Assembly (NCBI GenBank): GCA_963707505.1
Contig: CAVPQB010000004.1
Location: 640,001 to 704,000 of the forward strand
Direction of reading: 5' to 3'
Length of the DNA stretch: 64,000 bases
From: an uncultured Gemmatimonadales bacterium
GTDB taxonomy: Bacteria > Gemmatimonadota > Gemmatimonadetes > Gemmatimonadales > Gemmatimonadaceae
A program made the translations under genes and the position numbers. This document shows, piece by piece, positions 164-56,654 of this stretch. The notes beneath the pieces are model-generated. The model was not told the DNA's origin and made no database searches. It was given only the letters and a program-made list of their open reading frames with translations. Numbering within the stretch: position 1 is the stretch's first letter; each line of letters opens with the position of its first letter.

Positions 164-2236
164 ATGATTCATCAATTCACACGTTCGGTTCCGAACCGTC
201 TGTTCGGGCACGCGGGCATCGCTGCTGCGACGCTCTGTATCGCTATCGGTTCGGTCACAACCGCCGCGCAGGCGCAGGTGACCGATTCCACTCGGAAGGA
301 CTCCATCGCGCGGGCTGCTCAGCTGCATGCAGTCACGATCACCGCTGCACCAGCCGATCAGGGATCGCCTTCGACCTCGACGCACGTTTCGCAGCGCGTC
401 ATCGAGCTGACACCAGCCGCGACTCCGTGGGAGCTGCTGCGGCAAACCGCAGGCGTCGAGGTTCATCAACAAGGTCAGGGACCTGGCTTCGCCTCCGACG
501 CATCACTCCGCGGTTTCAGCTCGGATCATTCGACCGATCTCGCGCTCTGGGTTGACGGCGTGCCGATCAACGAGCCCGTTAACGGGCACGCGGAGGGTTA
601 CAATGACTGGAGCGTCCTCTTTCCGCTCGCAATCCAGGACATCGACGTCATCAAAGGCCCGGTGAGCCCACTGTACGGCAACTTCGCCGTCTCGGGCGTT
701 GTCAACGTTCGCACTCTCGAACGCATGACTGGAACGCAGCTAGTCGCGAGTGGCGGCTCCAATGGACTTGCGGATGCGACTGTACTGTCCGGATTCGATC
801 ACGGGTCCAGCGGTGGTGTTTTCGGTTTGCGCGCACGCCACGAAGACGGCTTTCGTCCAAATAGCCGCAGCGATCTTACGCAGGCGCACGGTCGCATCGT
901 GCGCGATATCGCGCCGAACGCCACGATCGACGGCGGGGTCGAGCTCTACGGTGCGCGCTGGCGTTCACCGGGCTACCTGAGTGAGAGCGAGTTCGCCGAT
1001 CATCAGTATGACATCGTGTCAAATCCGACGGACGGCGGATTCAAGCGACGCGCCCAGGAGCGCGTAAGTCTGCGCGTCACTGACGGCGATCTGCTCTGGC
1101 GAACGACCGCGTACGCCACGCAAGGCCGCTGGCAGCTATTCCTCACCATTCCGCCTGCTGGCGGGCAGTTCGAGGGCACGGGTAGCCAGACTGAAGAAGA
1201 GGATTCGCGGACAGGGTTTGGCCTTACAAGCGCCGTGACATATACCGGAAGCAGCACGGACGTCACTCTTGGTACGGAAGGCAGGTTCGATAACGCACGC
1301 TATGAGAACTATTTCACCACTGCGCGCAGCCGCGATTCGGTCAACGCGCTGTTCACTGGACGGCAGCTCTCCGGTGCGTTATTTGTTGCGTCAAACACCA
1401 TGATCGGCCGCTTGCGGCTCGATCTCGGCGCGCGCTACGACCTGCTCGACACGCGTTCGACTCCCGACATGGCTGGCGGTGTGACAAATTCGCGTGCGCA
1501 CGGGGTCTTCTCGCCCAAAGTGGGAGCACTTGCGCATCTCACACCTGAGATTGCCTTGTACGCCAATGCGTCGCGCGGATTCCGGTCGACGGATGGTGTG
1601 CTCACTGATCCCACCCTTGCCCCGATCACAGTGTGGGCTTACGAGAGCGGCGTGAAGCTCGATATCGAAAACGTCACAGCGTCCGCTGCACTGTTCCGGA
1701 TGGACGTCAGCAACGAACAGACCTTCAACCCGCTTGCAGCCGGTTCCATGAGCGGCGGTGCGAGCAAGCGACAAGGCATCGAGCTTGGCTTGCACGCGCC
1801 CGTGATTTCATTCGCTACGCTGAGCGGCGACTGGACGTTCAATGACGCACGATACACCAATCGAATTGCTCCGTCAGATGATCCGAACGGTCCGGTCGTT
1901 GTGCTGAGCGGGCTGCGGGTATACAACACTGCACAGTACGTCGGATCGGCTGCACTCGACATCTCACCGAGCACAAGCACAAACTCACCCTGGACCATAC
2001 GCGTGAGCGGGAACTGGGTTGGGCCTTACTCGCCGTTCGACGAGCCCGGTGTCGTTCTCGGGGCGTACGGGTTGCTACACGCAGCGGCAAGCGTGCGCCT
2101 CGGCCGTGCAGCTACTTTAGACATAGGAGCTCGCAACGTGTTCGACCGCGCGTATCCTGAGCTGGTTGCAGGTCATATCGTTGCACCAGGTGAGCCGCGG
2201 TCCGGCTATGTTGCCGTGAAATACACAATCTTGTAA
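164..2236 (+). CDS. TonB-dependent receptor
   Basis: Signal peptide, plug motifs (LRGFSSDH, VDGVPINEP, IDVIKGPVSPLYG), beta-barrel with C-terminal NVFDRAY...PGEPRSGYVAVKY. Confidence 0.92.
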   Translation: MIHQFTRSVPNRLFGHAGIAAATLCIAIGSVTTAAQAQVTDSTRKDSIARAAQLHAVTITAAPADQGSPSTSTHVSQRVIELTPAATPWELLRQTAGVEVHQQGQGPGFASDASLRGFSSDHSTDLALWVDGVPINEPVNGHAEGYNDWSVLFPLAIQDIDVIKGPVSPLYGNFAVSGVVNVRTLERMTGTQLVASGGSNGLADATVLSGFDHGSSGGVFGLRARHEDGFRPNSRSDLTQAHGRIVRDIAPNATIDGGVELYGARWRSPGYLSESEFADHQYDIVSNPTDGGFKRRAQERVSLRVTDGDLLWRTTAYATQGRWQLFLTIPPAGGQFEGTGSQTEEEDSRTGFGLTSAVTYTGSSTDVTLGTEGRFDNARYENYFTTARSRDSVNALFTGRQLSGALFVASNTMIGRLRLDLGARYDLLDTRSTPDMAGGVTNSRAHGVFSPKVGALAHLTPEIALYANASRGFRSTDGVLTDPTLAPITVWAYESGVKLDIENVTASAALFRMDVSNEQTFNPLAAGSMSGGASKRQGIELGLHAPVISFATLSGDWTFNDARYTNRIAPSDDPNGPVVVLSGLRVYNTAQYVGSAALDISPSTSTNSPWTIRVSGNWVGPYSPFDEPGVVLGAYGLLHAAASVRLGRAATLDIGARNVFDRAYPELVAGHIVAPGEPRSGYVAVKYTIL

Positions 2237-24123: not shown

Positions 24124-24205
24124 TGCGAGGAGGGGGACTCGAACCCCCATGGTGTTAACCGCCAGCTCCTAAGGCTGGTGCGTCTACCAATTTCGCCATC
24201 CTCGC
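24124..24205 (-). tRNA. tRNA-Leu (anticodon TAG)
   Basis: GCGAGGATGGCGAAATTGGTAGACGCACCAGCCTTAGGAGCTGGCGG...GGTTCGAGTCCCCCTCCTCGCA; long variable arm. Confidence 0.96.
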
Positions 24206-48805: not shown

Positions 48806-49990
48806 CTATCTCTTTCCGACGCTGTATTTCGCCAGTATCTCACGCACGCGATCCAGTGGTATCGCCTCGACCGTTCTGCCTTCGCTCGTCACCGATGTCG
48901 CCATGAACATCGAGTTGTAAACTGCTTCTTCCGTCGATTCTATCACCGCCTCGAACAGTGGCGACATGTCGTCGTTCGATACGTCTTCGGTGCTTCTTGG
49001 CACGGGCTTCCGATCCTGCGGCCTTCCACTCGACTGGACTATGCGGCGACGCACTCCTTCCGCAGTGGAGAAGGCGATCACGTAGTCTCCTGATCCGTTC
49101 GACGCGCTCGAGCCCGTGCGCGCAATGCCCATCATCGCGCGCGCAGCGAGCCGCTCCAGGTTGCGATCCGAAAGTGGTGCATCGGTTGCGACGACGATCA
49201 TCACCGATCCGTCGCCACGCTCCTGCTCGACGTAGTCCTTATACGCGTATTTCCCGAGCTCTCGGCCAACCGGCGCGCCCATCACCTGAAGCACGCCGCC
49301 GAAGTTGGTCTGAACGAGCACGCCGACGGTCCAGCCGCCGAGCGTGGTAGGCAACACGCGTGACGACGTGCCGATGCCACCCTTCCACTGGAATACGATC
49401 GTTCCTGCACCCGCACCGACGCTCCCTTCGGCAACCGGTCCGCTATTCGCGGACGCCAGCGCGTGGTGAACGTCTTCCGGAGAGATCGGGCGCGAGCGGA
49501 TCGCGTTCAACGTTCCATCGTTCGTCTCGCCGACGACAGGATTGATCGATCTCACGTTCTCCATGCCGGGCATGCTCAGCAGTTCCGCCGTGAGCGCATC
49601 TGCCGCGCGCCACACACAGAGCGTGCATGTCAGCAGGATCGGCGTCTCCAGCTCGCCCAACTCCCTGAGCTGCGTCGCGCCGACCAGCTTGCCGAATGCG
49701 TTCCCGACGAATACGGCTGCCGGAACTCGATCGAAAAACATGTTGCCGCCATGCGGAAGAATCGCGGTCACGCCGGTGTGCACCGAATCGCCAGCGATCA
49801 CTGTCGACTGTCCAACAAGGACACCTCTGACGTCGGTAATCGCGTTCTGCTTTCCCGGCGTGAAGATGCCCGGCGCGACGCCGAGCGCTCGTGCGCGCAC
49901 GCGGGGTTGCTGTGCGTCGAGGATGCCGGTAACTGTCAGGGCTGCCACGCAGATGGCGAGCACTCTGCTGTTTGAACTGATTGGGTGCAT
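48806..49990 (-). CDS. DmpA-like (P1/S58) aminopeptidase
   Basis: NAITDV, PVVGETNDG, NGSGD autoprocessing site. Confidence 0.92.
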   Translation of the reverse strand: MHPISSNSRVLAICVAALTVTGILDAQQPRVRARALGVAPGIFTPGKQNAITDVRGVLVGQSTVIAGDSVHTGVTAILPHGGNMFFDRVPAAVFVGNAFGKLVGATQLRELGELETPILLTCTLCVWRAADALTAELLSMPGMENVRSINPVVGETNDGTLNAIRSRPISPEDVHHALASANSGPVAEGSVGAGAGTIVFQWKGGIGTSSRVLPTTLGGWTVGVLVQTNFGGVLQVMGAPVGRELGKYAYKDYVEQERGDGSVMIVVATDAPLSDRNLERLAARAMMGIARTGSSASNGSGDYVIAFSTAEGVRRRIVQSSGRPQDRKPVPRSTEDVSNDDMSPLFEAVIESTEEAVYNSMFMATSVTSEGRTVEAIPLDRVREILAKYSVGKR

Positions 49991-50109
49991 GCGTGTGGGA
50001 GGTTGGAGTGACCAATCATACTACGGACGGAGCGAGACCGACATCGGACAGGTGTGTTGGGCATACCCAACGCGGTTGCGCCCGCGCGGATCGGGGCTCA
50101 GATTTCATT

Positions 50110-50236
50110 GCGTAACCCAGGTTGCACCCCGTCCGCGGAAAGGGATTATCCCACCTGAGCGCTTGTCGCACCACTGAGCGTCGACCTCACTTCTGCCCGT
50201 TGCTGGCGGACCTCGGGCGTTGCAGAAGGAGGAGTG
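50110..50236 (+). ncRNA. Candidate structured cis-regulatory leader RNA
   Basis: Several complementary segments including CCTC-A-CTTCTGC/GCAGAAG-GAGG covering the SD and GTCCGC/GCGGAC long-range pairing. Confidence 0.55.
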
Positions 50237-51774: not shown

Positions 51775-52941
51775 CTAGAAATTCGCAACCCAGTGCATGT
51801 AGTAAGTCTTTGTAGGTGCGACGGGGGCGCCATTCGCTGGCGTTGCTTCCTGGTAGTCGAGTGATATCGACGTTCTGGACGTCAGATCCCAGCTGAGTCC
51901 ACCGATGAACGTGTTGATTTTCGGACTGGTGGACGTGTTGGGGGTCAGCTGATCGTATCTCAGCACGACACCGAGCGGAATCGTCGATTTTGAGTCGACC
52001 ATCTTGAACGGCCTGGCGACGACGTAGCCTGCAACCAGGCGTCCGGTGCTATCCGCTATTCCGGCGGGAGAGGCAGCCGTGTTCGCACCCGTGTCCATTC
52101 CGTCCTGACGTTGCGCGTAGTCGATACCAACTACGAGACGCGGATCACGGATTCCGACGAAACCGCCGTACCGGTTGCGTTCCAGGCCGGTACCTATCGG
52201 ACCAAGCTGTCCACTCCCTCCATTCACGAACTTGCTGGCGAGATCGCCGCGATACACCCATCCGTCGATCGCGAGTGTGCGGAGATACGACAGATCGCTG
52301 TTGCCGAGAGGTGTGATGGTGAGTCGCCCCTGATAATCCTTGAACCTGTCAGTCTCGCGCGATGCGTATCCGGATCCGTTCGTCACGGCGACATATGCTT
52401 CGCCCAATTTGTTCGGCAGCGTAACGATGCCGGCGATTCCCGCGTCTGCTGAGGAGAAAAAGCCAGCGCGCTCGACCGGAGTCTGTGACAACCAGCGCGG
52501 CCAGAAGTTTTCCTCGTGGTCGATGAACATCGTGTGTATGAGACCGATCCGGCTGGTGAATCCCCAGTCACCGCTCTTCTTTGCCTTGAGAAAATCATAC
52601 TGCAGGTACGCGTACTTCGCGCGCAGCACCCAGCCCTTGTAGTACGAATCGCTTCCGGATGCCGTCTGCTGATACAGATCCCCAGTTACGCGGATGCTCG
52701 CTCGATCGCCGGCCGGCATCTTGAAGGTGAGATAAGCGCGCTCGACGTCGAACTTGTTCTGGTCCTTGTTTGCGCCGGCAGCAGCCTGATACTGGTAATT
52801 CCCGAATACGACGCCGGAGAAGTCGATCGGAATTGTTACCTTCGTAACGGTTTTGGTGGTATCGGTCCGAGTCGTGTCCTGAGCCATCAGCGTCGGCGGA
52901 AGCAACACGGCGACTGCGAGAAGTGAGGCGGATATTCGCAT
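51775..52941 (-). CDS. Outer-membrane beta-barrel protein, probable phosphate porin
   Basis: Signal peptide, FDVERAYL, KYAYLQY, C-terminal Phe; directly after pstS. Confidence 0.7.
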   Translation of the reverse strand: MRISASLLAVAVLLPPTLMAQDTTRTDTTKTVTKVTIPIDFSGVVFGNYQYQAAAGANKDQNKFDVERAYLTFKMPAGDRASIRVTGDLYQQTASGSDSYYKGWVLRAKYAYLQYDFLKAKKSGDWGFTSRIGLIHTMFIDHEENFWPRWLSQTPVERAGFFSSADAGIAGIVTLPNKLGEAYVAVTNGSGYASRETDRFKDYQGRLTITPLGNSDLSYLRTLAIDGWVYRGDLASKFVNGGSGQLGPIGTGLERNRYGGFVGIRDPRLVVGIDYAQRQDGMDTGANTAASPAGIADSTGRLVAGYVVARPFKMVDSKSTIPLGVVLRYDQLTPNTSTSPKINTFIGGLSWDLTSRTSISLDYQEATPANGAPVAPTKTYYMHWVANF

Positions 52942-52943
52942 TG

Positions 52944-53984
52944 TTACTTGCTCGCTCCGAGCGCGGTGAGACGTGCGTCAAGCCGACTAACCATTGTTGC
53001 CGGAAGTGGTGCGTAGTCGAGCGATCCTGCAACCGACTCACCATTCTTATATACCCAACGCAGGAAGTTGGCGAGCGCCTTTCCCTTCACAGCATCCTTG
53101 GGATGCTCGTAAACGAGTATCCAGGTGAACGATGAGATCGGATACGCAGCCTTGCCTGGCGCGTTCACGATCGAGATGCGGTAATCGGTATTCGCGGGAA
53201 TCTTTGCCGCCGCTCCAGCCGCCGCTGCGGTAACCGATTCCAGCGTCGGTGCGACCCACTCGCCAGCCGCATTCTTGATCAGCGCAACCGGAAGCTTGTT
53301 CTGCTTCGCGTACGACAGCTCGACGTAGCCGACCGCGCCTGGAAGCTGTTTCACCTGGCCCGTAACACCTTCGCTGCCCTTGCCACCGAGTCCCACTGGC
53401 CAGTTGAGGCTCTGTCCTCTACCTACCTTGCCCGCCCATGACGTGCTGATGGTTGCGAGGTAATCGCTGAAGATGAACGTCGTGCCGCTGCCATCAGCGC
53501 GGTGTACCACTATCACGTCGGTCGATGGGAGCTTCACGCCCGGGTTGAGCGCCGCGACGCGCGAGTCGTTCCACTTCGTGATGCCGCCCATGAAGATGTC
53601 GGCGAGAACGGGACCGGTGAGCTTGAGCGGCTGCGTCACGCCCGGAAGGTTGTACGTTACGGCGACACCACCCAGAACCGTCGGGAAGTGCAGGATCGCG
53701 CCACCCTTCGCTTTGGCGAGCTGCTCGTCCGTCATAGGCCCGTCGGTCGCGCCAAAATCGACGATTCCGTCGGATAGCTGACGAATTCCACCGCTCGATC
53801 CGATCGATTGGTAGTTGATCTTCACTCCGGTTTTCTGCGCGTACATCGCGGCCCATTTGGAGTAGATCGGATACGCGAAACTCGATCCGGCGCCAGTGAG
53901 GTTGGTTGCTTGCGCGCACGCTATCGAGATGAATGCGCCTGACATCACTGCAGTCAGTGCCGCAATACGAACAGGTCGAATCAC
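52944..53984 (-). CDS. pstS: Phosphate ABC transporter substrate-binding protein
   Basis: GAGSSF, NYQSIGSSGG, DFGATD, RADGSGTT, YPISSFTW. Confidence 0.97.
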   Translation of the reverse strand: MIRPVRIAALTAVMSGAFISIACAQATNLTGAGSSFAYPIYSKWAAMYAQKTGVKINYQSIGSSGGIRQLSDGIVDFGATDGPMTDEQLAKAKGGAILHFPTVLGGVAVTYNLPGVTQPLKLTGPVLADIFMGGITKWNDSRVAALNPGVKLPSTDVIVVHRADGSGTTFIFSDYLATISTSWAGKVGRGQSLNWPVGLGGKGSEGVTGQVKQLPGAVGYVELSYAKQNKLPVALIKNAAGEWVAPTLESVTAAAAGAAAKIPANTDYRISIVNAPGKAAYPISSFTWILVYEHPKDAVKGKALANFLRWVYKNGESVAGSLDYAPLPATMVSRLDARLTALGASK

Positions 53985-54057
53985 AGGGTACTCCGTGAGA
54001 GGGTTTGAACCAGCACCCAATGATCGCTAACACACATCACGGAATTCACCGCGATTC

Positions 54058-54074
54058 GGTAACGGCTATGTCAC
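54058..54074. promoter_or_regulatory. Putative Pho box upstream of pstS
   Basis: GGTAAC-GGCTA-TGTCAC, nearly identical to the pstC site. Confidence 0.6.
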
Positions 54075-54084
54075 GGCTGATCCA

Positions 54085-55809
54085 TCACGTCTCGCGCGGC
54101 GCCGACACGGCGGCCGGAAACGAGGCGCTCACGGTCGTGCCGCGTCCGAGCACACTCTCGGCCCGCACCGTTCCTCCGTGCGCCTCCACCAGATGCTTCA
54201 CGATCGCGAGCCCGAGCCCGGTCCCGCCCTTGTCGCGCGAGCGCGCGGAGTCGGCGCGATAAAAACGCTCGAAGATGCGCGGCAGATGCGCGGGCGCAAT
54301 CCCGACCCCGGAGTCTCTCACACCAACCACGGTGTATCCGGCCGCGTCGCGGTGAGCGAATACCGTGACCGTTCCGTGTGAAGTGTGGCGGACGGCATTC
54401 TCGACGAGATTCGAGATTACCTGACGCAACGCGGTGCGATCCGCGTACACCCAGCGTGCATCGTTGGATACCTGCGCTTCCGTTATGACGTCGTTGGCCG
54501 TAGCAACTTCGGCACTGGACGCGATCGCTTCGGCTGCGACAGCAGCGACGTCCACATTCACCGGCCGCGGAACCCAACCGCCCGACTCGATGCGCGATAG
54601 GTCCAGCAGCTCGTCCACGATGCGTTGCATGCGGGCAGTGTTGGATTGTATCAATGCTGCGAATCTGATGCGATCGCCCTCCTCGACGCCGGGCTCGCGG
54701 AGTGTCTCGGCGAATCCACCGATCACGGTGAGCGGAGTGCGCAGCTCGTGCGACACATTTGCGACGAAATCCCGCCGCATCGCTTCCAGTCTGCGTGTTC
54801 TGGTGAGGTCGGTGAGCGCGAGTACCGCGCCACCATGCGGCAACGGCCGTGCCGCTACGGCCAGCATCCGTCCCGAGATCTCCATGGGGTCGCCGTCAGA
54901 CGGTACGCCGCTCAGTGCACTCTCGAGTACGGTGTGCAGCTCGCGCTCACGTGGTATGTGATCGGCGGAGAACGGTACCTGCTCATGGATGCCCAGCATG
55001 CCGCGTGCGGCAGTATTGATGCGCAGCACGGAACGGCGAGCGCTGATTGCGAGTACGCCTTCACCGAGCGACTCCACAACGGCCGACACCAGCGCCTCGT
55101 CATCCTGCAACGCCTTGAGGCGCGCGCCGAGCTGCTCGGACAGACTGTACAGTGCGCGCGCCAGATCGCCGACCTCGCCGGGCGCCGACATCGATGGCCG
55201 GCGCGACAGGTCGCCGTCCGCGATCGCGCGCGCAACGTCGCGCAATTCGACTACCGGACGCGACACGGTGCGGGCGAAAACAATTGCGAGTAACAGCGCG
55301 ATGGCCGCGGCGGCCACACCGGCGAAGGCGACGTCGCCCAGTGCAGTATTGAATATCGTGTCGAACGACGCAGTGCTCTGCGATACGCGAGCAGCGCCCA
55401 ATTGGGCGGGTACCGCGACGTACACCTCGTCGTCGCCTTCCGATGGACTGAGCCGGCGCGACGTGCCAACCCGGCCGGCGAACGCGGCGATCACCTCCGG
55501 TCGTCCCGAGTGATTCTGCAAGCCGGCGACGCCCGCCGAGTCGAACTGCGAGTCTCCGAGCACGACTCCGTCGCGACGGATCAGCGTTACCCTGTGCCCC
55601 AGTGTTCTTCCCGCAGCGTGCGCCAGTTGCGGCGCGCTGACAGCTGGCGTCCATTGCGAGGCTACGAACTGAGCCTCGCGCGCGAGCTCGTCAGTGCGCT
55701 CGGTAGTGAGACGCCCGTGCAGCTGCCGATCCAGAATGAACGCGACCGTCAACGTCAGCGCGATGATTATTGCGAGTGACGAAAGCAGCAATCGATTGGC
55801 GAGCCTCAC
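54085..55809 (-). CDS. phoR: Phosphate sensor histidine kinase
   Basis: HAMP, PAS, DFVANVSHELRTPL, GGTGLGLAIVKH; context. Confidence 0.9.
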   Translation of the reverse strand: MRLANRLLLSSLAIIIALTLTVAFILDRQLHGRLTTERTDELAREAQFVASQWTPAVSAPQLAHAAGRTLGHRVTLIRRDGVVLGDSQFDSAGVAGLQNHSGRPEVIAAFAGRVGTSRRLSPSEGDDEVYVAVPAQLGAARVSQSTASFDTIFNTALGDVAFAGVAAAAIALLLAIVFARTVSRPVVELRDVARAIADGDLSRRPSMSAPGEVGDLARALYSLSEQLGARLKALQDDEALVSAVVESLGEGVLAISARRSVLRINTAARGMLGIHEQVPFSADHIPRERELHTVLESALSGVPSDGDPMEISGRMLAVAARPLPHGGAVLALTDLTRTRRLEAMRRDFVANVSHELRTPLTVIGGFAETLREPGVEEGDRIRFAALIQSNTARMQRIVDELLDLSRIESGGWVPRPVNVDVAAVAAEAIASSAEVATANDVITEAQVSNDARWVYADRTALRQVISNLVENAVRHTSHGTVTVFAHRDAAGYTVVGVRDSGVGIAPAHLPRIFERFYRADSARSRDKGGTGLGLAIVKHLVEAHGGTVRAESVLGRGTTVSASFPAAVSAPRET

Positions 55810-56537
55810 ATACTCCTCGGCGGCGCCGCGTTGATTCGATAGCCAAACCCGCGCACCGTTTCGATCATGTCACCGGATGCGCCGAGCTTGGTCCGAAGTC
55901 GCTGCACGTGCATGTCCACGGTGCGTGTCTGGATGTCGGGCGCAGCCTCCCACACTGTCTCCAGCAGCAACGTGCGCGCAAGCACGCGGCCACGGCGCTC
56001 CGCCAGTGTCAGCAGCAGCTTGTATTCGGTGGGAGTGAGATCGATCAAATCGCCATCGACTCGCACTTCGTGAGCAGCGCGATCGATCCGCACTGCCCCC
56101 ACCTTTATCACGTCGCTCTGTACCGTGGCCGGTGCGCGAACCCGCCTGAGGATCGCGCCCACGCGAAGCGTCAGCTCCTGCGGCGAGAATGGCTTGGTCA
56201 GATAGTCGTCGGCGCCGAGGACCAGACCGCGCACGCGATCGGGCTCCTCTCGTCGTGCGGTGAGCATCAGAACCGCGATGTTCGCAGTAGCCGGCTCGGC
56301 GCGCAGTTTCTCGATGACGTCGAATCCCGACATTCCGGGCAGCATGAGATCGAGCACAATGAGCGCCGGCGACTCGGCGTTGGCTTTTGCCAGGGCCTCC
56401 GGCCCCGTGCTGGCCGTCGACACACCATAGCCCGCGCGAGCGAGATGGTAAGCGACAAGAGCGACTATATCCGGCTCGTCGTCGACGACCAGTATTCGCT
56501 CCGTGACTGCGCCGTTGTCGTCGTTTCCAGATATCAT
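55806..56537 (-). CDS. phoB: OmpR-family response regulator PhoB
   Basis: ILVVDDE, LDLMLP, GADDYLTKPF, TRTVDMHVQRLR. Confidence 0.9.
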   Translation of the reverse strand: MISGNDDNGAVTERILVVDDEPDIVALVAYHLARAGYGVSTASTGPEALAKANAESPALIVLDLMLPGMSGFDVIEKLRAEPATANIAVLMLTARREEPDRVRGLVLGADDYLTKPFSPQELTLRVGAILRRVRAPATVQSDVIKVGAVRIDRAAHEVRVDGDLIDLTPTEYKLLLTLAERRGRVLARTLLLETVWEAAPDIQTRTVDMHVQRLRTKLGASGDMIETVRGFGYRINAAPPRSM

Positions 56538-56654
56538 GATCGTCACCAAAGTTCGCTGCCCGGAGCCATCGACGGGAGCGCGGATCTGTCACGAAGGTGT
56601 ATCAACCCGGGTCGACCCGCGGTTTCGGGCCATCGCCGCCCCCAATAACTTATT

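Follow-up and report, generated by a model that had tools for sequence, protein, structure and literature searches.

A structured leader RNA with a predicted buried ribosome-binding site accompanies genes for a basic N-terminal helical domain in at least nine bacterial phyla

Here we describe a leader of ~125 bases that lies directly 5' of an ankyrin-repeat protein gene in a 64,000-nucleotide stretch of DNA from an uncultured Gemmatimonadales bacterium (hereafter, the window). Comparison of sequences from many genomes confirmed that the leader is a widespread structured RNA, with a pairing pattern that at least nine bacterial phyla have in common. This RNA tracks the 75-residue N-terminal domain of the downstream protein, and not its ankyrin cargo, in a near one-to-one coupling. 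The leader is an uncatalogued RNA of a known kind, a cis-regulatory leader, and folding calculations predict that it hides the ribosome-binding site. A preliminary description made from the letters of the window had proposed a structured, SD-sequestering leader, and all pairings that it named are present in the sequence where it placed them.

Overall, the leader (Table 1) is predicted to fold as an H-type pseudoknot, formed by P1 and pseudoknot 1, that encloses two hairpins. One of these, with a stem of only two pairs, exposes GTCCGC for pairing with the 3' hairpin's apical loop. The comparison also refined the preliminary description. Its GTAAC/GTTGC hairpin corresponds to a real P1, which has four pairs and a loop, CAGG, engaged in a second pseudoknot that had been missed. 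Its pairing of GTCCGC with GCGGAC was borne out and is really a loop-loop kiss, the two-pair stem that closes the 5' loop having been overlooked. The CTTCTGC/GCAGAAG register rightly buried the SD, but G50195 and C50196 belong to the upper stem GCCCG/CGGGC instead. Finally, CGCTT(50160) and GAGCG(50176) can pair, but they lie in the unconserved linker, where the predicted energy is -1.95 kcal versus -2.14 kcal for shuffled sequence (n = 250). The linker tolerates ~40 extra bases, as in one locus (L322:290-500) where imperfect ATCAATG-type repeats lengthen it and both leader ends are intact. Besides invariant G-C pairs, only two unpaired bases are near-invariant, namely, the adenines flanking P3 (A50141 in 81/81 rows and A50153 in 78/81). 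As a separate observation, the leader core CC-N-GTCCGCGG-NAA (50128-50141) resembles a segment of the genome's own 16S rRNA, CCAGCAGCCGCGGTAA, over 9 bases (CCAG-T-CCGCGG-AAA in the core and CCAG-CAG-CCGCGG-TAA in the 16S rRNA); the DNA is GC rich, and the likeness may be chance.

Table 1. Coordinates of the leader, its parts, and the flanking genes (window positions)
Feature	Position	Strand	Remarks
Peptidase S58 gene, divergent, 5' neighbor of leader	48806-49990	minus	
Promoter-like element: -35 TTGCGC (50076-81), 17-base spacer, -10 CAGATT (50099-104)	50076..50104	+	Regex match in window
P1 hairpin, GTAA(50112-15)/TTGC(50122-25), 6-base loop	50112..50125	+	83.8% paired; 3/4 pairs changed on both sides
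Pseudoknot 1, P1 loop CAGG(50118-21) with CCTG(50154-57)	50118..50157	+	93.1% paired; AU/GC/CG swaps
Two-pair stem, CC(50128-29)/GG(50137-38)	50128..50138	+	Closes 7-base loop holding kissing strand
Loop-loop kiss (pseudoknot 2), GTCCGC(50131-36)/GCGGAC(50206-11)	50131..50211	+	99.4% paired; 5/6 pairs compensated
P3 hairpin, GGGA(50142-45)/TCCC(50149-52)	50141..50153	+	Alignment A4
Variable linker	50158..50184	+	No conserved column; folds like shuffled sequence
3' hairpin: anti-SD arm (50185-94), upper stem P4, apical loop with GCGGAC, SD	50185..50232	+	
P4 upper stem, GCCCG/CGGGC	50195-99/50214-18	+	95.3% paired
SD, GAAGGAGG	50225-32	+	Pairs with anti-SD arm (predicted)
N-terminal helical domain, ~75 aa	50237..50461	+	Net charge +7; likely RNA binder
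Ankyrin-repeat protein gene, 478 aa	50237..51673	+	Gene under the leader

Because the folding energy of the single sequence is ordinary (MFE -60.4, z -0.65 against 200 shuffles), thermodynamic stability was dropped as evidence for structure, and support for the leader must be comparative. Alignment A4 holds 83 rows from 98 sources; 11 were chosen for a variant kissing strand, two rows are chance matches, and neither the short stem nor either pseudoknot formed part of the covariance model used. Over six helices (P1, pseudoknot 1, the short stem, the kiss, P3, and P4), 93.1% of cells are paired, 20 of the 26 helix pairs have changed on both sides, and all six helices show compensatory changes. 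None of 500 shuffles reached the observed pairing, and slid partners paired in 39 to 46% of cases. The leader is both conserved and covarying. The outer pair of the two-pair stem is CG in 69 rows, AU in 7, GC in 1, UA in 1, and something else in 4.

The kiss was further examined with a metagenome pattern that leaves the six bases of the kissing strand free, which gave at least 120 matches; of the 120 listed, 112 were evaluable. Among the metagenome matches listed, 95/112 have the consensus on both sides of the kiss, and 13 differ in the 5' strand, with 10 compensated, 2 mismatched, and 1 degenerate. Additional compensated forms were found at loci L326, L353, and L354; the kiss partner at loci L188 and L200 was assigned by eye. 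GTCCGC itself is present in 237/250 leaders across nine phyla, a uniformity partly fixed by the search patterns. Compensatory events were also counted on a protein tree of 231 loci, a set selected for an intact kiss and P3. The kiss shows 12 such events over its six pairs (the absence of breaks is meaningless here, as an intact kiss was preselected), and the outer pair of the short stem shows 4, with 2 breaks. Two positions of pseudoknot 1 show 34 and 38 events, against 4 and 28 breaks, and two pairs of the likewise preselected P3 show 10 and 19.

The SD is predicted to pair with a pyrimidine arm at a probability above 0.5 in 75% of the leaders (n = 250). The basal duplex is computed at -14.3 kcal for cognate strands versus -10.6 kcal for non-cognate (swapped) strands (n = 242), and opening the SD stem would cost 12.2 kcal in the window, with a median of 10.8 for leaders versus 7.2 for control genes (n = 31) from the window's genome. 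No second conserved conformation or open state was found, in a test to which switches of tertiary docking are invisible. Pairing of the anti-SD arm with GGAAAGGG was considered as an open state and rejected, as this duplex is not cognate specific (-8.5 versus -8.8 kcal). The leader may act as a switch.

An element similar to the promoter-like sequence of the window is found in 110/245 leaders, ending 24 to 30 bases 5' of the kissing strand in 107, and was found 0 times in a coding-region control; a stricter promoter scanner reported no promoter at the leader. Since the element ends a few bases 5' of P1 in these 110 leaders, the leader likely forms the very 5' end of the transcript, which in the window would start at ~50111-50112, the first base of P1. 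A leader-peptide attenuator is not indicated, as alignment A4 has no conserved start-codon column 5' of the gene's own start. The ankyrin gene is a one-gene unit between a divergent and a convergent neighbor, and the effector names that NCBIfam gives for its ankyrin portion reflect generic matches to repeats, with scores well under the cut-offs. The convergent genes (51775-56549, minus strand) form what appears to be a phosphate uptake cluster, unrelated to the ankyrin gene, with a PstS-like binding protein (PF12849), a 388-aa protein, possibly a porin, that has no Pfam match, and a PhoB/PhoR-like pair recognized by eye. Elsewhere, a tRNA gene (24124-24205, minus strand) is the only Rfam match across the whole window.

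The leader scored below every gathering threshold of Rfam 15, with a chance lncRNA match (E 3.2) as the only hit; this agrees with the preliminary description, which could assign it to no known riboswitch class. Two sets of related loci (16 and 10) likewise had no Rfam match in their leaders, and curated models of self-cleaving ribozymes did not match. The motif was not found by title or abstract start in a literature search that covered papers outside subscription, and an unnamed listing in the supplements of RNA discovery studies is possible.

When residues 1 to 76 of the protein were used to search 61 related genomes, 25 loci were obtained; 23 carry the leader directly upstream, and the other two sit closely behind another gene. 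The link to the LPxRPxLExLKKQAK domain in other phyla, which the preliminary description had suggested, holds. A pattern scan of GTDB gave at least 121 matches, with taxon titles for 80. The titles name Actinomycetota, Acidobacteriota, Gemmatimonadota, Verrucomicrobiota, Planctomycetota, Pseudomonadota, Methylomirabilota, Armatimonadota, Latescibacterota, and a delta proteobacterium. The domain lies downstream in 111/121 GTDB matches listed; it follows at once in 105 of the 120 with a called start, and in 6 more it is in another frame or partial. The 10 remaining matches listed comprise 4 cut by the locus end and 6 without the flanking helices, and of the latter, the 4 tested against the RNA model R1 did not score. 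Similarly, 103 of 110 evaluable metagenome matches listed precede the domain.

Genome samples were searched independently with the RNA model and the protein profile; kin within them are not independent. The numbers with both, RNA only, and domain only were 37, 2, and 2 for 141 Gemmatimonadota genomes (37/39 of the RNA-bearing ones), 11, 1, and 0 for 146 actinomycete genomes, and 10, 3, and 4 for 121 Acidobacteriota genomes. The RNA-only cases read comprise relic 5' halves fused to unrelated broken genes, a pseudogene from which the domain has been deleted, a contig end, and weak scores due to chance. In Acidobacteriota, the leader is diverged or interrupted in three of the four domain-only cases, and two of these retain a compensated kiss; diverged domain subfamilies have diverged yet compensated leaders (L353 and L354). 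Truly leaderless domain copies exist, inside operons or after deletions. Among 49 proteins scanned (of 65), 42 carry ankyrin repeats (2 with TPRs), 1 carries a Lon substrate-binding domain, and 6 have no Pfam match in their cargo.

Several further loci are worth recording. In a set of deletion relics (L321, L323, L320, L330, and L349), 5' leader halves are fused to unrelated or broken genes; the set also includes one internally deleted leader and one leader 5' of a domain-deleted pseudogene, and the unit is often lost or broken. On one short contig, two leaders stand back to back (L259:83-218, minus strand, and 282-418, plus strand), tandem loci at L328 hold two leader copies 3 kb apart, and up to five copies occur in one genome (G262). 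A look-up of sequencing runs listed no RNA holder.

The N-terminal domain was modeled (AlphaFold2) as four helices with a pLDDT of 86; helix two is missing in some members. No Pfam family was assigned to the window's domain, which stays short of the PF20066 cut-off, and 6/21 relatives match weakly. Solved folds gave no clear match to either of two domain models (best Z, 3.9 and 5.1), the closest being 3fyb (DUF1244; rmsd 3.0 to 3.5 over 54 to 57 residues). Foldseek returned none at E ≤ 0.001, a PDB sequence search returned only hits of E 0.78 and 1.2, and the ESM Atlas returned only hypothetical clusters under 0.9. The domain is present in 10,414 clusters (50% identity, E up to 0.001). In leader-bearing copies, conservation (profile numbering) is 93% for K/R15, 85% for K/R16, 100% for K/R19, 96% for Q54, 84% for R59, and 100% for W66. 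Internal repeats of the domain keep its core (A58, 99%; W66, 99%; G62, 88%) and lose the basic face, with K/R15 falling from 95 to 24%, K/R19 from 99 to 34%, K/R23 from 74 to 21%, and Q54 from 96 to 25%; this comparison, which covers 118 internal repeats within the 150 best representatives, is biased, as the profile was built from first copies and matches were ranked by it. Seven leaderless copies were read, of which three have lost the basic residues of helix 1 (L318, L329, and L331) and four keep them (L319, L330, L350, and L352); at 3/7, such loss is not decisive and was set aside as support. Phage proteins of 47 to 73 residues (including those of Pseudomonas phages Lana and PMBT3) have predicted folds in BFVD like a stand-alone domain (TM 0.61 to 0.75, E 0.01 to 0.18).

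Two related families have leaders of their own. The window's domain is homologous to the N terminus of PF20066 (hhalign probability 96.7%, E 3.6e-10, profile to profile). In a set of 121 Alphaproteobacteria, 11/11 PF20066 loci carry a different conserved leader ~150 bases upstream, the helices of which covary and are 91.3% paired. A model trained on these 11 loci found the leader in 18/21 further loci, the misses being the three weakest protein matches, which gives 29/32 loci overall (in the range L277-L287, L359-L374, L380, and L381). Its plan is that of the window's leader (class I), with a promoter, a 5' domain, a linker, and an SD hairpin with a loop pairing back. The kiss, GYYYGC/GCRRRC, is paired in 29/29 rows and is the identical GTCCGC/GCGGAC in two loci; a covarying P1 and conserved GGTGAA and GGCAA are also present. 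The cargos of this family are glyoxalase-like, Lon substrate-binding, and, by eye, ClpX-type zinc finger domains. In this leader, a GCYG segment has two potential partners, one local and one in the 3' loop, with T-A compensation in 4 rows, and the alternative pairing is possibly a real switch. The second family, the PRK05973 ATPases, was found through a weak NCBIfam match and has an N terminus homologous to the window's domain (95.1%). A third leader precedes its genes in 8/8 loci (L459-L466), 145 bases upstream, with complementary CCCTCC/GGAGGG and ATGC/GCAT segments and an SD hairpin; the eight are too closely related for covariation to show. Homologous domains each have their own SD-hairpin leader whose loop pairs with a 5' part; however, leader sequences and P1 closure differ, and the window's domain is below Pfam detection.

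Rfam matched neither of these additional leaders, look-ups for either retrieved nothing, and models R1 and R2 did not detect each other's leaders. The model for the PF20066 leader (class II) found nothing in the window's own genome, which is 83% complete. From the shared plan and core, common descent of the class I and PF20066 leader RNAs appears plausible. Separately, weak homologues of the domain have other structured-looking leaders (L274:1240-1500 and, in L376, upstream of the PF20066-like gene), which may be additional classes; the former has the complementarities GTCCAC...GTGGAC and GCCTA...TAGGC.

In light of these data, we favor, with modest confidence, an account in which the ankyrin protein represses its own translation, its N-terminal domain binding the leader fold and locking the SD stem. 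The 5' leader of the message would fold into a compact double pseudoknot with the ribosome-binding site held in a stem. The domain would then bind this RNA via the basic face of helix 1 (K/R15, 16, 19, and 23), together with Q54 and R59, to which the loss of this face in internal repeats is an indirect pointer, and would stabilize the kiss, the 3' strand of which begins a median of 32 bases 5' of the start codon, so that the SD stem stays shut. Occupation of the cargo by a partner or ligand, or degradation of the protein, would leave less free protein and restore synthesis, which is the weakest step of the proposal. Self-repression is the simplest account because an SD-burying RNA follows a basic domain through cargo swaps and three domain families. 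However, the coupling is no proof of binding, because physical linkage alone keeps the leader and the adjacent N terminus together during cargo swaps. Furthermore, self-repression leaves the start of translation unexplained, as the RNA is predicted to be shut even when naked and the comparison revealed no conserved open state.

Autogenous translational operators are known for rpsO/S15 and thrS. As in such operators and in ribosomal-protein leaders (r-leaders), the structure immediately precedes the gene for its presumed binder, and the ribosome-binding site is computed to be blocked. For r-leaders (PMC7247131), several distinct leader classes are described for one protein family, e.g., S15, S4, and L31, as we see across one domain family, and mimicry of an rRNA site is not required of all r-leaders. 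Unlike in r-leaders, the window gene is not ribosomal and the proteins downstream are ankyrin, Lon-domain, or unknown proteins; the presumed binder is a three-to-four-helix domain fused to changing cargos, and the leader has two pseudoknots, including a loop-loop kiss. Its 16S likeness spans 9 bases. As a more tentative extension, we can imagine an ancient, portable RNA-protein module, a small helical RNA-binding domain plus kissing-loop leader, in at least three codiverged classes. It would have been joined to various cargos for sensing (ankyrin repeats, glyoxalase/bleomycin-binding, Lon substrate-binding, ClpX-type zinc finger, and ATPase) to give one-component regulators with the cargo as sensor and their own messages as target, and stand-alone phage copies could hijack or titrate it.

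The best-surviving alternative, which we regard as unlikely, is a new riboswitch class in which the 5' domain and kissing loop form a metabolite, ion, or drug pocket that closes or opens the SD stem, the domain being the activity for which the ligand calls. Pseudoknot riboswitches include ZTP (pfl), preQ1-II/III, SAM-II/V, and the cobalamin kissing loop, and the plan of the leader, typical of translational riboswitches, appears to resemble the ZTP and preQ1 classes in its 5' domain, variable linker, and 3' hairpin loop pairing back to control the SD. The core, in which G-C pairs are invariant and two adenines occupy helix junctions, is strongly uniform across phyla, more so than many protein-bound operators, and thus a small-molecule ligand fits as well. 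In addition, the PF20066 cargos weakly resemble bleomycin-binding proteins (E 2.8e-8, far under the cut-off). However, the SD lies in the basal stem and not in a pseudoknot, and homologous domains use leaders of different sequence. Moreover, riboswitches usually serve several gene families, whereas intact leaders never preceded a gene without the domain in the loci examined, and two near-invariant unpaired bases are few for a metabolite pocket. The evidence therefore leans to a protein-bound operator over a metabolite riboswitch.

It is also conceivable, though quite improbable in our view, that the RNA is a working partner of the domain in a ribonucleoprotein, as a scaffold, neutralizer, or mimic, e.g., of rRNA, with SD burial keeping the two in proportion. 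The elaborate tertiary fold for a one-gene unit, the fusion of the domain to many unrelated cargos across its clusters, the small phage proteins predicted to fold in a like manner (TM 0.63 to 0.75), and the resemblance of the leader core to the 16S segment would suit this. Against it, no terminator or processing signal was seen between leader and message, the leader is rare on viral contigs, where only 1/57 pattern matches is a true one, and the short 16S likeness, in GC-rich DNA, is absent from the other two leader classes. Type III toxin-antitoxin RNAs (ToxI and AbiQ) are likewise pseudoknotted RNAs upstream of the gene of a binder protein; unlike these, the window leader is single copy, neither a repeat array nor a terminator precedes the gene, no nuclease toxin is encoded, and the RNA includes the SD. 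Opening or closing of the leader by an outside factor (a host RNA-binding protein, a helicase, the ribosome state, or a physical stress), with another job for the domain, seems very improbable. A naked RNA that is predicted shut would suit an activator, and four leaderless genes retain the basic residues, but the same factor would be needed in nine phyla while serving only these genes, no neighbor gene is conserved in 20 loci (29 neighbors scanned), and two pseudoknots exceed the needs of a thermometer. A passive structure that stabilizes the message or dampens translation without switching would agree with the lack of a conserved alternative fold and of a cognate-specific GGAAAGGG:anti-SD duplex, but it is hardly credible, as constant dampening needs no long-range kiss or invariant bases across phyla and three domain families.

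In summary, a widespread, uncatalogued structured RNA accompanies a domain family that spans thousands of clusters and has no assigned function, and among the GTDB matches listed, the leader occurs in genomes of culturable Streptomyces, Nonomuraea, Amycolatopsis, and Burkholderia. If the domain does not bind the RNA, the leader would be a strong orphan riboswitch candidate. If it does, it would represent a new RNA-binding fold, the PF20066 and PRK05973 annotations would need revising, and a large family of self-regulating genes would gain a function.
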